Source of the DNA: Candidatus Aminicenantes bacterium
GTDB taxonomy: Bacteria; Acidobacteriota; Aminicenantia; Aminicenantales; Aminicenantaceae
Direction: 5' to 3'
Length of the DNA: 64,000 nt
Assembly: GCA_046483285.1 (NCBI GenBank)
Contig: JAWODN010000055.1
Coordinates: 36,530 to 100,529 of the forward strand
In this document: piece by piece, positions 10,296 to 56,887 of the stretch
Layout of the letters: every line of letters begins with the position of its first letter
How positions within the stretch are numbered: the first letter of the stretch is position 1
The notes under the pieces: model-generated
Databases searched by the model: none
Told to the model about the DNA's origin: nothing
Seen by the model: the letters and a program-made list of their open reading frames with translations, nothing else
Made by a program: the position numbers and the translations under genes

Positions 10296-10368
10296 GCGAT
10301 GAATGATCCGGCAGATGTGGTGAGATCCGGCCCGCCCGCAAGGACGTTTTTTTATGAATAAGCCAGGC
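10296..10368 (+). repeat. Mosaic-repeat fragment (G-like GATGTGGTGAGATCCGGCCCGCCCG, then T7-ATGAATAAGCCAGG), facing the desulforedoxin start
   Basis: Shares GATGCGGTGAGATCCGGCCCG with 15225-15240 and 56622-56645. Ends in the T7-ATGAATA box 33 nt before the start at 10401. Confidence 0.7.
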
Positions 10369-10400
10369 GAAGTAATGTTTCAATTAATAAGGAGGGAAAC

Positions 10401-10990: not shown

Positions 10991-11043
10991 TTCCTGTGTC
11001 AGTTGGAATAAAAGATTAAGCGCATTCTTAAGCTGAATAACAC

Positions 11044-11275
11044 ACGGGCCGGGATTGCCGCAGACGGCGACAATTCTTTAATCCAATGTCATTCCGAGGT
11101 GCGATGCGGCGAGGGATTTCTGGCGGCCTCGTCTGGGCGGCGGGTCCCGCCTTCACGAGGCAGGAAGGGATTGCCACGGCTTGCTGGCGCAAGCCTCGCA
11201 ATGACAAGGGGTGTGTCAGGAAGGAATTGCCGCAAAGAAACGATTTTCTGGGGTATAAGTCAGGCATATAAGGTT
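11044..11275 (+). repeat. Mosaic repeat (modules B, C-variant and pre-start motif), facing the porin gene
   Basis: CACGGGCCGGGATTGCCGCAGACGGCGACAATTCTTTAAT (B), then ...CACGAGGCAGGAAGGGATTGCCACGGCTTGCTGGCGCAAGCCTCGCAATGACAAGGGG (C, 3' half identical to 15400-15458 and 56190-56248), then GGGTATAAGTCAGGCATATAAGG before the ATG at 11280. ORFs 11028-11267(-) and 11086-11271(+) lie inside it and are spurious. Confidence 0.8.
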
Positions 11276-14933: not shown

Positions 14934-15158
14934 ATGAAAATGAAAGAAAAAGTTCAAGCTGTATTGGATAAAATCCGGCCTTCTCTGAAAGCGGACGGAG
15001 GCGACGTGGAATTCGTGGGGATGGAAGACGGAGTGGTGAAGGTGAAATTGACCGGAGCCTGCGCTGGTTGCCCCATGTCCCAGATGACTTTAAAGATGGG
15101 AATTGAGAAATTACTGAAAAAGGAAATTCCGGAAGTCAAGGAAGTGGTGTCTGTCTGA
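14934..15158 (+). CDS. NifU-like Fe-S cluster scaffold domain protein (Nfu)
   Basis: 74 aa with the C-A-G-C-P motif (LTGACAGCPMS) of the NifU C-terminal domain. Confidence 0.7.
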   Translation: MKMKEKVQAVLDKIRPSLKADGGDVEFVGMEDGVVKVKLTGACAGCPMSQMTLKMGIEKLLKKEIPEVKEVVSV

Positions 15159-15171
15159 GTATTTCTGGCTC

Positions 15172-15633
15172 TGCAGCCATGGGAGCGGGAGATGGATCGC
15201 CGCCCCCATGGCCGCAAGATGCGGTGAGATCCGGCCCGGATGAATTATTTTTTTATGAGTTCATTATGAGTATAATACACCGTGAAGGATGAAAATGATT
15301 CCAATGTCATTCCCGGAGCGGAGCACTTTTGAGTCTGTCATTCCGAGACACGCAGTGCCTCGGAATCCCTGACTGCTTCGTATGAGCGGTGGGTTCCGCT
15401 TTCACGAGGCAGGAAGAGATTGCCACGGCTTGCTGGCGCAAGCTTCGCGATGACAAGGGGCATGTCGTCCCGGGGAGCGGAGCAGCGGGAATCTTAGAGT
15501 GCCTCGGCTAATGATTCGGAACCGGCTCATCAGACGAAGCCGAATAAGATCCTTACGGCCTGCTTCGCAGGCCTCAGGATGACAGCGGAGCTGTCATTTT
15601 CTAAGGTATAGGTCAGGATAAGGTATAGGCGAA
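15172..15633 (+). repeat. Mosaic repeat, modules H/G-F-C-D, facing nadA
   Basis: H/G is CCATGGGAGCGGGAGATGGATCGCCGCCCCCATGG...GATGCGGTGAGATCCGGCCCGG. F (15247-15336) is T7-ATGAGTTCAT, TATAAT at 15271, then ACACCGTGAAGGATGAAAATGATTCCAATGTCATTCCCGGAGCGGAGC. C is 15337-15462. D is 15463-15633 and ends in CTAAGGTATAGGTCAGGATAAGGTATAGGCGAA before the ATG. About 95% identical to 56034-56400. Confidence 0.85.
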
Positions 15634-16548
15634 ATGAAAAACACCGGGAATAAAAAAATTTACCAAGAGATTGAAAGTTTAAAGAAAGAGCATGACGCGG
15701 TTGTCATTGCGCATAATTACCAGATCGGTGAAGTGCAGGAAGCTTCGGATTTTGTGGGTGATTCACTGGGTTTGAGTATCGAAGCTTCCCGGCGTGAGGA
15801 GCAGGTCATTGTTTTTTGCGGGGTCCATTTCATGGCGGAAACGGCCGCGATTCTGGCCCCGGAAAAGACCGTGATCATTCCGGAGCCGAAAGCCGGCTGC
15901 CCCATGGCGGATATGATCACCGCGGATCAGATGAGGCGGTGGAAGGCCGAGCATCCTGGAGCCGTGGCGGTCTGTTATGTCAACAGCACGGCGGACGTCA
16001 AAGCGGAATGCGACATATGCTGCACTTCTTCCAATGCTGTTGCCGTGGTGGAGGCGGTGGAAGGGGAAACCATCTTATTTGCACCGGATAAAAATTTAGC
16101 CTCCTGGGTAAGCCGTCATACCTTCAAAAAAATTATTCCCTGGGAAGGGTGCTGCTATGTTCATGACCAAATTCATCTGCAGGATGTTTTGAAAAAAAAA
16201 CAGGAGCATCCGGATGCGGAAGTATGGGTTCATCCTGAGTGTCCGCCCGCGGTGATTGACACCGCCGATAAGGTTTTATCCACCGGGGGCATGGTGAGAG
16301 AAGCCGGCAGAACCGCTTCGCCCGCTGTCATTATCGGCACTGAATCCGGAATGATATATCGTTTGGAAAAAGAAAATTCCGCCGTTAAATTTTTTCCTGC
16401 CAGGGACCAGGCGATATGTGTCAACATGAAAAAGAATAATCTGACAAAACTTCACCGGGCCCTCAAAAATTCAGGCCCGGTGGTCAAGGTTCCCGGCGAT
16501 ATCGCAGCCCGTGCCCGCCAGGCCATCCAAAAAATGATCGCCGTATGA
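15634..16548 (+). CDS. nadA: Quinolinate synthase A
   Basis: AHNYQ, FCGVHFMAET and three conserved Cys regions. Length 304 aa. Confidence 0.85.
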   Translation: MKNTGNKKIYQEIESLKKEHDAVVIAHNYQIGEVQEASDFVGDSLGLSIEASRREEQVIVFCGVHFMAETAAILAPEKTVIIPEPKAGCPMADMITADQMRRWKAEHPGAVAVCYVNSTADVKAECDICCTSSNAVAVVEAVEGETILFAPDKNLASWVSRHTFKKIIPWEGCCYVHDQIHLQDVLKKKQEHPDAEVWVHPECPPAVIDTADKVLSTGGMVREAGRTASPAVIIGTESGMIYRLEKENSAVKFFPARDQAICVNMKKNNLTKLHRALKNSGPVVKVPGDIAARARQAIQKMIAV

Positions 16549-16715
16549 ATTCATTATGTATAACCTGACCTATTCATAAAAAAATTGCGATGTTTTTGTA
16601 ATCTCTTTCTTATCCGCGATAAGCATGGTTTTTAGTGATGCGCCTCGCATGTGCGGCAATCCCGGCCCGTGAATAATTCAGGTATAATACACCGTGAACC
16701 AGGAATTCTAATCTG
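16546..16715. repeat. Mosaic repeat (ATGAATTCAT box overlapping the nadA stop, module A inverted, B-start inverted, F-like GGTATAATACACCGTGAACC)
   Basis: ATGAATTCAT at 16545-16554. CCTGACCTATTCAT-A7-TTGCGATGTTTTTGTAATC at 16564-16600. GCGGCAATCCCGGCCCGTGAATAATTCAGGTATAATACACCGTGAACC at 16651-16700. Confidence 0.8.
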
Positions 16716-26950: not shown

Positions 26951-27550
26951 GCCTGACCTATTCATAAAAAAATTGCGATGTTTTTGCAATCCCTTTTTTA
27001 TCAGCGATAAGCATGGTTTTTAATGAAAGATCAAATAGAACGTTTTTCATTTTTCAATTGTTATTTTAATCGCAATTTTTTTACCCTTCGGGCGGGCATG
27101 CCACTTTGTCATTGCGAGGCTTGCGCCAGCAAGCCGTGGCAATCCGTTTCTGCCTCGTGAAAGCGGAACCCACCGCCCATACGAGGCAGTCAGGGATCCC
27201 TGGTCGCTTCGCTCCCCGGGGCGACATTGAATTAAAGAATTGTCGTCGTCTGCGGCAATCTCGGCCCGTGAATAGGTCAGGTTAGAAAATCGTTTCTTTG
27301 TGCCCATGGGGGCGGGATGATGGATAAGCCGGCCCGTATGAAGGCTGAGCGGGCAGGGTTCCTCTCCGCAGGAGAGGAGAGCGAAGCCGGAATCGGAGCG
27401 GATGTCCTCGCTGGGGACATCCGCGTGGCGGCGATCCATCTCCCGCTCCCATGGGCACAGTTCAAAAGTGATTGTCATGGTACACGGTGTATTATACTCA
27501 TGATGAATTCATAAAAAAATTAACCGGCAATCCAGGCCCGCTGGATGCCA
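26951..27550 (-). repeat. Mosaic repeat in minus orientation, modules F-H-B-C-E/A, facing the purN start
   Basis: Read on the minus strand: F (27519-27455, with the ATGAATTCAT box at 27503-27512 and TATAAT), the H nested palindrome (27462-27298), B (27292-27230), C-variant (27228-27095), then the E end and A (27092-26952: GCCCGAAGGGTAAAAAAATTGCGATTAAAA...GATTGCAAAAACATCGCAAT-T7-ATGAATAGGTCAGG) 45 nt upstream of the purN ATG. ORFs 27047-27478(-) and 27317-27514(+) inside it are spurious. Confidence 0.85.
27298..27462. repeat. Nested-palindrome element (H): 35-bp terminal inverted repeats TGCCCATGGGrGCGGGAkGATGGAT...GCCGGCC around two internal perfect palindromes
   Basis: 27301-27335 is the reverse complement of 27427-27462. 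Inside are CCTCTCCGCAGGAGAGG and GGATGTCCtcgctgGGGACATCC. A single-copy relative lies at 15178-15216. Confidence 0.75.
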
Positions 27551-36037: not shown

Positions 36038-36640
36038 GGATGAGGAACGGGAGGGAGCGGCCGGAGATGCGGGGCGTTATCCGCCGACTGCACTCTTTGC
36101 AACGAGAGACCGGTTTTCTAAGTTGTAAGTTATACAGACTGAATGAAGAGCGGGCGGGAGCCGCCGGAAAGGGGAGTGCTGTTTATCGCCATTTTTTTAT
36201 GGATTCAGGATGTGTATAATAGATTTTCTAACCTGAATTATTCACGGGTCGAGATTGCCGCAGACGACGACAATTCTTTAATTCAATGTCGTCCCGAGGA
36301 GCGGAGCGACGAGGGATCTGTGAGTGCTTTCGTCAGGCCATATTGATAACGGGTTGCCAATTCGAAGCAGTCCGGGATCCTTCGCTCCGCTCAGGATGAC
36401 ATTAAATTAATGAAAGGTCGTCACTTCACTGCGAATGCCCTGCAACAAAGCAGATGCGGTGAGAGTCGGCCCGCCCGAAGGGTAAAAAAATTGCGATTAA
36501 AATAAAAATATGAAAATGAAAAACTTTCCATTTGAACTTTCAATAAAAATCATGTTAATCGCTGATAAAAAAGGGATTGCAAAAACATCGCAATTTTTTT
36601 ATGAATAATTCAGGCTAAGGTATAAGTCAGGATAGGTTAA
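36038..36640 (+). repeat. Mosaic repeat, modules G-G-F(degenerate)-B-E plus pre-start motif, facing ppiD
   Basis: Two G copies (36038-36075 and 36118-36190). T7-ATGGATTCAGGATGTGTATAAT at 36193-36220. B at 36235-36300. The BE element 36235-36613 is about 95% identical to 56405-56789. Ends in AGGCTAAGGTATAAGTCAGGATAGGTTAAG at 36611-36640. ORF 36143-36346 inside it is spurious. Confidence 0.85.
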
Positions 36641-39657: not shown

Positions 39658-39692
39658 GCATGTGTGTAATACGCCACGAACCATGAAAATCG
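39658..39692 (+). repeat. F-module fragment (ATGTGTGTAATACGCCACGAACCATGAAAATCGG), promoter-like, 18 nt before the iadA RBS
   Basis: Matches ATGAGTATAAyACACCGTGAACCATGAAAATGA of F modules at 15261-15296 and 56051-56086. The minus-strand ORFs at 39417-40117 are spurious. Confidence 0.5.
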
Positions 39693-55997: not shown

Positions 55998-56887
55998 GGA
56001 TGATGAACGGGCCGGGATGGCCGCATATCGCCATTTTTTTATGAATTCATCATGAGTATAACACACCGTGAACCATGAAAATGATCCCAATGTCATTCCC
56101 GGAACGGAGCGCTTTTGAGTCTGTCATTCCGAGGCACGCAGTGCCTCGGAATCCCTGACTGCCTCGTATGGCCGGTGGGTTCTGCTTTCACGAGGCAGGA
56201 AGGGATTGCCACGGCTTGCTGGCGCAAGCCTCGCAATGACAAAGTGGCATGTCTTCCCGGAGAGCGGATCGACAGGAATCTTAGAGTGCCTCGGCTAATG
56301 AGTCAGAACCGGCTCATCAGACGAATCCGAATAAGATCTTCACGGCCTGCTTCGCAGGCCTCAGGATGACAGCGAAGCTGTCATTTTCTAAGATATAGGT
56401 GAGGCTTGCCTGGCCTATTCACGGGCCGGGATGGCTGCAGACGACGACAATTCTTTAATTCAATGTCGTCCTGAGGAGCGGAGTGACGAGGGATCTGTGA
56501 GTGCTTTCGCCAGGCCGTATGGACAATGGGTTGCCAATTCGAAGCAGTCCGGGATCCTTCGCTCTGCTCAGGATGACATTAAATTAATGAAAGGTCGTCA
56601 CTTCACTGCGACGAGCCTCAAGCCGGAAGATGCGGTGAGATCCGGCCCGCCCGAAGGGTAAAAAAATGGCGATTAAAATAAAAATATAAAAATGAAAAAC
56701 TTTCTATTTGAACTTTCAATAAAAATCATGTTAATTGCTGATAAAAAAAGGATTGCAAAAAAATCGCAATTTTTTTATGAATAATTCAGGATAACATATG
56801 TGTGTTTTACAGAAATGATGAATATCGCAGCTAACAAAGGATTGACAAAAGTATCGCCATTTTTTTATGAATAGGTCAGGATAGGTT
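55998..56887 (+). repeat. Largest mosaic repeat block (0.9 kb), modules G-F-C-D-B-E plus extra and terminal T7-ATGAATAGGTCAGGATAGGTT, facing the DUF4388 gene
   Basis: G at 55998-56033. F at 56034-56126 (ATGAATTCAT at 56041-56050). C at 56127-56252. D at 56253-56400. B and E at 56405-56789. An AGGATTGACAAAA -35-like string at 56826-56838. Terminal motif ends at 56887, and the ATG is at 56888. ORFs 56115-56369 and 56431-56661 inside it are spurious. Confidence 0.85.

Follow-up and report, generated by a model that had tools for sequence, protein, structure and literature searches.

Module C is a repeated intergenic element of about 125 nt, flagged at positions 15337-15462 of a 64-kb window, the window being the whole stretch of DNA analysed here (64,000 nucleotides of contig JAWODN010000055.1, positions 36,530 to 100,529, from the Candidatus Aminicenantes bacterium assembly GCA_046483285.1) and the reference for all names, coordinates and strands given below. 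The element is a head-to-head heterodimer of two hairpins resembling repetitive extragenic palindromic (REP) sequences, each of them carrying a TGTC tag, with the tags on the outside and a structured spacer in between. Its best explanation, to which we assign a probability of roughly 0.6, is that Module C constitutes one building block of a mosaic, strain-variable array of intergenic repeats; neither a new RNA nor a new kind of mobile element is revealed.

The initial annotation had described a four-copy repeat of about 125 nt, and this was borne out by repeat finding, alignment and a 31-nt probe taken from the left end of the element, which matched at 15337 and 56123 (chance expectation 0). 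Besides the flagged copy, on the plus strand, three further copies are found in the window, at positions which differ somewhat from those first given. The second, also on the plus strand, occupies 56122-56241 (start 56123, rather than 56127); it is the best-preserved copy, with a perfect 12-bp left stem, and the sequence originally printed for the flagged copy is actually a consensus closest to this one. The third, again on the plus strand, occupies 11087-11206 (start 11088), has a different left unit (GTCATTCCGAGGTGCGATGCGGCGAGGGATT) and is also found at the corresponding locus of a sister strain (L141; loci fetched for comparison bear L numbers). The fourth, on the minus strand at 27107-27226, exhibits a third type of left unit (GTCGCCCCGGGGAGCGAAGCGACCAGGGATC) and lies inside a composite element bounded by terminal inverted repeats (TIRs).

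Three hairpins make up each copy. In the flagged one, the left unit (15336-15368, plus strand) consists of the TGTC tag, the stem ATTCCGAGACAC/GTGCCTCGGAAT with one A.C mismatch, a GCA loop and a C-C tail, the left part of Module C being, in general form, TGTC + ATTCCGAGGCAC-GCA-GTGCCTCGGAAT + CC. The spacer, of about 50 nt, contains a central hairpin (15373-15412, plus strand) in which a 9-bp outer stem, CTGCTTCGT/ACGAGGCAG, surrounds 5-6 bp of AGCGG/CCGCT, and which can be extended by the flanking ATCCC/GGGAT. The right unit (15418-15455, minus strand) carries its TGTC tag, an ATCGC...GCAAT outer stem, an internal loop and the inner stem GGCTTGC/GCAAGCT, followed by C; it is of the same type as GTCATTGCGAGGCTTGCGCCAGCAAGCCGTGGCAATC, and on the opposite strand the right part of Module C reads TGTC + ATTGC-GAG-GCTTGC-GCCA-GCAAGC-CGTG-GCAAT + CC. 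The left unit thus has a 12-bp stem closed by a 3-nt loop, and the right unit a bipartite stem of 5 + 7 bp, interrupted by an internal loop and closed by a loop of 4 nt; by type, the unit frames are written GTCATTCC...GGAATC and GTCATTGCGAG...GGCAATC. What had been taken for terminal inverted repeats is the outer frame common to the two units, namely (T)GTC, a stem starting with AT, a variable inner hairpin and C.

The same plan holds for the other dimers of the window. All 16 full units (eight dimers) carry TGTC before the stem, and the eight dimers, whose copies are not all independent, have their tags outward and spacers of about 48-57 nt which are conserved within each type. The stem starts with A-T in units of the GTCATT type (ATTCC/GGAAT, ATTGC/GCAAT) and with G.T in those of the GTCGTC type; a C directly follows the stem in every unit, within tails reading CCC, CCG, CTC or CTG, never CCA. 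A loose scan of the window for such units returned 15, compared with 8.5 in shuffled sequence, and 12 of the 15 fall within the repeat arrays.

The four copies of Module C are all embedded in larger repeat blocks, forming arrays of up to 940 nt. Those at 15337 and 56123 belong to a block of about 360 nt, composed of a Y module, a truncated TGTC unit, Module C and the related Module E, which is duplicated at 91-92% identity. The composite element with 13-bp inverted repeats (CCTGAATTATTCA...TGAATAATTCAGG) has one slot that holds either Module C (11088 and 27107) or another related dimer, Module D (both copies).

The variability of these arrays was followed in a same-species set, defined by contigs encoding an identical NifU protein and by genomes with 97-98% average nucleotide identity to the window; this comparison covers the copies at 15337, 56123 and 11088, the 27-kb copy lying outside it. 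A 349-nt block with the Y module, the truncated unit and Modules C and E (15259-15607, plus strand), starting right after TTTTTTTATGA, is absent from L141-L145: in five of the six same-species contigs the spacer between NifU and NadA measures 119 nt without it, with flanks of 97-98% identity, and the sixth contig stops before the spacer. The second copy lies in an array of about 810 nt (56047-56859, plus strand), made up of the Y + C + E block, a composite element carrying Module D and one more, partial element, between two copies of CGCCATTTTTTTATGAAT, and this whole array is missing before the PatA_N gene of the same sister genome (locus L147). L141 keeps the copy at 11088, with 7 differences over about 110 comparable positions (about 94% identity); this divergence of some 6% resembles that of the adjacent non-coding DNA and is about double the 3% by which the two genomes differ overall. 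In more distant relatives, with NadA proteins about 77% identical, the three sites are occupied by spacers of only 52-70 nt (54 nt at the 56-kb site in L148), and related modules are present at other spacers. Since blocks are missing from strains of the same species and the distant relatives have short spacers, the arrays are young and variable, and whole blocks are the units of change: the differences consist of the 349-nt and the ~810-nt blocks, and no site was found in this comparison at which Module C alone had been gained or lost.

Each polymorphic block starts right after one copy of a terminator-like motif (...TTTTTTTATGA, also written TTTTTTTATGAATAGG) and stops at a second copy. L147 has two motif copies adjacent to each other where the window has its array of about 810 nt, so that loss by recombination in the sister strain is as possible as a gain here. 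Two contigs begin at or beside the repeats: L142 starts inside a right unit of Module C (positions 1-29), and L147 (1-489) in the gene that immediately precedes the array site. As related-strain contigs break in this way, the arrays are probably under-represented in metagenome-assembled genomes (MAGs) built from short reads. For annotation, the arrays explain spurious small open reading frames (ORFs) as well as such contig breaks.

One of the two readings offered at the outset was that of a foldback miniature inverted-repeat transposable element (MITE), that is, a deletion derivative of an insertion sequence on whose 12-bp TIRs a DDE-type transposase would act. The size of about 125 nt and the multiple copies agree with it, and the same arrays do contain a genuine miniature element with TIRs and a target-site duplication (16564-16683, TATAA). 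Concerning the ends, a complementarity of 11/12 had been claimed, and it holds for the copies at 56123 and 11088; the ends of the flagged copy, GTCATTCCGAGA and CTTCGCGATGAC, are only 8/12 complementary, and those of the 27107 copy 7/12. Moreover, the left end is swapped between copies, and both ends are units able to fold by themselves, which in other phyla are met singly or in other combinations. The proposed check for target-site duplications was negative at all four Module C borders, where left flanks end in CT or AT and right flanks start with AA. No transposase is encoded in the window, no site was found with Module C alone present or absent, and Module C occurs only within larger blocks, with no independent boundaries, an outcome which the initial annotation had itself named as speaking against its proposal. 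A classical MITE is thus very unlikely, and of the original alternative, MITE or RNA, what survives is the foldback character and the link with mobile repeat DNA, not either specific reading as stated.

The second of those readings was a structured non-coding RNA (a leader, a stabiliser or a small RNA), transcribed with the downstream gene or alone. The predicted structure consists of the three hairpins closed by a terminal stem, the two arms pairing with each other only at the outer 12 nt, and the three-hairpin fold is predicted for the Module C copies with both RNA and DNA parameters. Strong folds are predicted for the sense-strand RNA, with z-scores of -3.5, -6.6, -1.2 and -3.5. The hairpins, announced as perfect, each contain a defect in the flagged copy: an A.C mismatch in hairpin 1 and one G.T wobble each in hairpins 2 and 3. 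All four copies, and all eight dimers, are co-oriented with the downstream gene, and three of the four copies lie between co-directional genes, which would also suit an RNA. Standard pairs fill 93% of the Module C pair cells, compared with 34-41% for controls with slid partners; as regards covariation, only three pairs are changed on both sides, all of them within the left unit, which is not homologous between copies.

Indeed, the left hairpin is of three types among the four copies, having been replaced in two of them, and what is common to all four is restricted to the spacer hairpin and the right hairpin (columns 31-120, about 95 nt). Within this shared core, 8 of 52 paired columns and 9 of 38 unpaired columns are variable (Fisher p = 0.42), which does not uphold the claim that substitutions are concentrated in loops. 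One-sided stem changes of the core, read on the gene-sense strand, gave six G.T (G.U) cells and no A.C cell, with two more G.T cells in the L141 ortholog. This pattern favours an RNA in so far as it fits selection on one transcript; it also fits selection on one DNA strand or a mutation bias, the numbers being small and the events non-independent. Further points stand against an RNA. The downstream genes are unrelated (nadA, the PatA_N gene, purN and a gene of unknown function), and at two loci the element is absent from same-species strains which keep the genes. Module C diverges as fast as the neighbouring non-coding DNA. No Rfam family matched at gathering score in the whole window, and even at E <= 10 only chance-level matches appeared in 15150-15640, while ARAGORN found neither tRNA nor tmRNA in the window. 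In the metagenome collection, a scan for the central hairpin gave four matches, all due to chance and in unrelated sequence. Altogether, a functional RNA is quite unlikely. Protein space, searched with a translated frame of Module C for further copies annotated as ORFs, yielded no candidates.

The right unit, unlike the central hairpin, has relatives in other phyla. The version of the right unit at 56204-56240 has an exact 37-nt match in an Oscillospiraceae MAG (L001 3072-3108), which was the only match in the scan of the genome collection; this is a gut MAG from a Hadza metagenome, and the match lies inside an array of other GTCATTGCGAGG...GGCAATC units, with no mobile gene near it. At about 90% identity and with a compensated inner stem, the right unit is also found in Helicobacter canis prophages, one of which has about 20 such units, often in convergent pairs. 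Furthermore, at least 120 loci of IMG/VR contain units with the right-unit frame, 126 of them distinct and with 72 different inner arms among them; 61 of these 126 viral units form inner stems of at least 5 bp, compared with about 8% after shuffling, and GTC is preceded by T in 107 and by C in 42 of 168 units (T or C in 149/168). The conservation of the frame, together with freely compensating inner stems, argues that the hairpin is read as a single strand and not as a sequence. Two of the viral contigs (L049 2670-2856 and L077 8305-8491) carry at least five GTCATTGCGAG...GGCAATC units in tandem, in the same orientation and with 11-12-nt spacers, a layout different from the inverted pairs of the window. 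The plasmid collection contained no match, the left-unit pattern gave only three chance-like matches in viral contigs, and the literature matches to GTCATTGCGAGG or its complement were unrelated primers only.

For the mosaic-array explanation, a mechanism can be proposed in which the units would be recognised by an enzyme specific for hairpins of single-stranded DNA, its gene lying elsewhere in the genome. Spacers and left and right units would then be exchanged between arrays through cleavage or recombination at these sites, and such shuffling would account for the three left-unit variants and for the alternation of Modules C, D and E in the same slot. By analogy with Neisseria, the most likely candidate for the enzyme, although at clearly less than even odds, is a small GIY-YIG nuclease of the Ssn type. 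SsnA, a nuclease of this kind, binds the 28-nt NTS sequence CGTCATTCCCGCGMAVGCGGGAATCYRG as single-stranded DNA, the cut falling immediately upstream (Chenal et al. 2025, PMC11893778), and such motifs typically bracket ssnA genes, which are of the single-domain GIY-YIG type (cd10448) (PMC11893778). Module C itself would then probably be cargo or spacer, comparable to the RS elements of Neisseria, with no sequence-specific function of its own, and any effect on neighbouring genes, such as stabilisation of transcript ends or a recombination hotspot, would be secondary. A bolder version, in which the dimers are still active today, as non-autonomous partners of an Ssn-type nuclease in Aminicenantes, is unlikely. 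If it is true, the gain or loss of blocks with Module C between strains would be the first population-level sign of NTS/SRM-like repeats still moving and building NIME-like arrays outside Neisseria, and the identical 37-nt unit in Oscillospiraceae would suggest horizontal spread or else an extreme constraint imposed by a shared enzyme.

A GIY-YIG regular expression and tblastn, used to look for candidate enzymes in the window, in the prophage of H. canis, at the locus of the Oscillospiraceae match and in about 1 Mb of viral loci, yielded one gene (L015). The bracketing known for ssnA was reproduced in viral loci with single-domain GIY-YIG genes: inverted CGTCATTCCCGCGAAGGCGGGAATCCA units are present on both sides of the gene in five of eight (L134-L137 and L139), flanking is imperfect in L133, and L138 and L140 have none; two of these viral genes were tested and both match PF01541. 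The four-helix-bundle, IS200 TnpA and RAYT queries gave no tblastn matches in the window or in the fetched loci, a weak test made with consensus queries.

Several results weigh against the explanation preferred here. No nuclease or transposase gene, whether GIY-YIG, HUH or other, exists in the 64-kb window. In the viral loci with GTCATTGCGAG...GGCAATC units, about 1 Mb in all, the gene in L015 is the only Ssn-like one, and it is flanked by canonical CGTCATTCCC units and not by units of the GTCATTGCGAG type. The published expression for Ssn-related motifs (SRM), HGTCWYN(0-2)YYVSBRHN(0-5)WNVSBRGN(0-2)RNCYNB, has no match in the Module C units, and their stems of 12 or 5 + 7 bp, with loops of 3-4 nt, depart from the 8-9-bp stems of the four described families of CGTC-tagged repeats. 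The polymorphic blocks end at the T-run motif and not at TGTC units, so that recombination between motifs, or a deletion in the sister strain, is possible instead of unit-directed transposition. Finally, the G.T excess (8:0) also covers the right unit, whose tag reads on the opposite strand, and for this excess a single transcript fits at least as well.

Around Module C, the repertoire of modules is wider. Module E (15463-15584, plus strand; second copy at 56250-56371) is a tags-outward dimer of the same plan, whose spacer has the stem base GAGTGCCTCG...CGAAGCCG as in Module C; on its reverse strand, a hammerhead-like CTGATGAG was considered and rejected, having neither stem II and the GAAA core nor an Rfam match. 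Module D (36287-36401, plus strand; second copy at 56464-56578) is a tags-outward near-homodimer whose fold is a single long hairpin. The left unit, the inverted right unit and the base of the stem in the spacer (GAsTGCyTCG...CGArGCmG) are common to Modules C, D and E. Immediately before the flagged copy lies a truncated TGTC unit, GTCATTCCCGGAGCGGAGCAC (15305-15326, plus strand), and the same layout is repeated at 56091-56112. The composite element has TIRs of the form CCTGA(A/C)(T/C)TATTCA / TGAATAATTCAGG. Its minimal version, of 120 nt (16564-16683, plus strand), has 13-bp TIRs (CCTGACCTATTCA / TGAATAATTCAGG) flanked by the TATAA direct repeat and is absent at the same site in L141; longer versions carry Module C or D and an AT-rich tail, and other copies of this family are located at 26955-27282 (minus strand, read 27282-26955), 36231-36613, 56409-56790 and 11030-11275.

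The Y module (ATGAATTCATTATGAGTATAATACACCGTGAAC) is found at 15255-15300, 56041-56086, 16545-16563 + 16684-16705 and 39659-39690, with a perfect TATAAT inside, and may be a portable promoter; the 120-nt element sits in the TATAAT box, the Y module being its insertion target. The terminator-like motif, a GC hairpin followed by TTTTTTTATGAATAGGTCAGG, was seen at 10308-10370, 15229-15258, 56010-56046 and 56853-56880, at the 3' ends of several genes, and the arrays begin directly after its T-run. Scanning three of the arrays for promoters and terminators was uninformative. The genes of the window are ordinary chromosomal genes, and its NadA is 100% identical to an NCBI protein assigned to Candidatus Aminicenantes. 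In the 3' region of NifU, a small inversion distinguishes the window (15176-15215) from L141 (10243-10262), CATCTCCCGCTCCCATG of L141 corresponding to CATGGGAGCGGGAGATG in the window, where about 17 extra bases then give a longer hairpin. Upstream of glnA, a segment of about 75 nt (27304-27377) is 96% identical to L141 11322-11395, in the spacer between NadA and HhH-GPD, and is a further movable module; no Rfam family matched the glnA leader of 360 nt.

As regards known systems, Module C is like Correia (CREE), ERIC and RUP elements in its size class (about 100-150 nt), its terminal inverted repeats, its intergenic location and its ability to fold. In Correia, ERIC and RUP-type elements the whole unit is inserted and the target duplicated (TA for Correia), whereas no duplication accompanies Module C, whose ends are interchangeable. 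An integron attC site was rejected by inspection, with neither RYYYAAC/GTTRRRY core sites nor a nearby integrase.

The repeats of the REPIN and bacterial interspersed mosaic element (BIME) type are thought to be handled as single-stranded DNA hairpins, and are defined by GTAG-type tags and HUH tyrosine transposases. Module C resembles REPIN/RAYT systems and the BIMEs of E. coli in its inverted REP doublets with a spacer and in the mosaic intergenic clusters that they form, and it might accordingly be thought a REPIN, a REP doublet copied by a RAYT, that is, by a domesticated IS200-like tyrosine (HUH) transposase. The layout of two inverted hairpin repeats and a spacer is that of a REPIN (PMC3116915, PMC3337134), and Module D folds into a REPIN-like hairpin. 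On the other side, the tag is TGTC, not GTAG, CGTC-type repeats are reported not to flank RAYT genes (PMC3733652), the arms of Module C pair over their outer 12 nt only, and no IS200- or RAYT-like ORF was seen in the window or the fetched loci with the consensus queries, a weak test, mentioned above. Mobilisation by a RAYT is the least probable of the explanations considered.

Among the known systems closest to the units are the CGTC-tagged REPs, a superfamily with the tag CGTC (variants TGTC and CCTC), an A-T stem start, stems of 8-9 bp and loops of 4-5 nt (PMC3733652), followed by a short tail, mostly CCA, and arranged mostly as tags-outward (head-to-head) dimers of high genome copy number (PMC3733652). 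Their spacers, of 20-100 bp, are often conserved, some with stem-loops, and no transposase is associated with them (PMC3733652); the dRS3 of Neisseria belongs to this superfamily (Di Nocera et al. 2013, PMC3733652). The units described here share with it the unpaired TGTC tag, the C-rich short tail, the tags-outward dimers of unlike units, the conserved 48-57-nt spacers with a stem-loop, the A-T stem start, G.T pairs in the stems and the lack of an adjacent transposase. Apart from the stem and loop lengths, they differ in tails reading CCC, CCG or CTC instead of CCA and in a phylum outside those listed.

The NTS hairpins of Neisseria (CGTCATTCCC...GGGAATC) depend on GTC for cleavage and on the C after the stem for binding (PMC11893778). 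Likewise, every unit here has GTC directly 5' and C directly 3' of the palindrome, and the left unit has ATTCC...GGAAT arms; the inverted pair around a cargo recalls the NTS-ssnA-NTS arrangement, except that the cargo is a non-coding hairpin and not ssnA. The SRM expression matched three times in the window, always outside the repeat arrays (0.17 in shuffles), and did not match the H. canis and Oscillospiraceae units.

In the Neisseria intergenic mosaic elements (NIMEs), inverted dRS3 repeats (20 bp, ATTCCC-N8-GGGAAT) bracket more than 100 families of RS elements of 50-150 bp (PMC1797815), in arrays that vary between strains and were once said to be confined to Neisseria (PMC1797815). The arrays of the window are similarly intergenic and made of bracketed modules of many families, with ATTCC(C)...(G)GGAAT or ATTGC...GCAAT frames; syntenic arrays differ in content and length between strains, and other small elements are nested in them. 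They are unlike NIMEs in several respects: their flanking units measure 31-38 nt, the stems being long or bipartite, and do not contain the exact dRS3 sequence; they belong to an uncultured Aminicenantes; and they lie beside housekeeping rather than surface-antigen genes. Because Module C matches neither the SRM expression nor the pattern of 8-9-bp stems with 4-5-nt loops, it is not filed as NTS/SRM sensu stricto; by analogy of layout it is assigned to the dRS3-RS-dRS3 or CGTC-REP dimer kind, as a new unit family in a new phylum. Mosaic REP arrays of the NIME type are thereby extended to an uncultured phylum, and the presence and absence of blocks within one species offers a case that can be used to ask how hairpin repeats of the CGTC/NTS type spread, the enzyme that would spread them being still a candidate.

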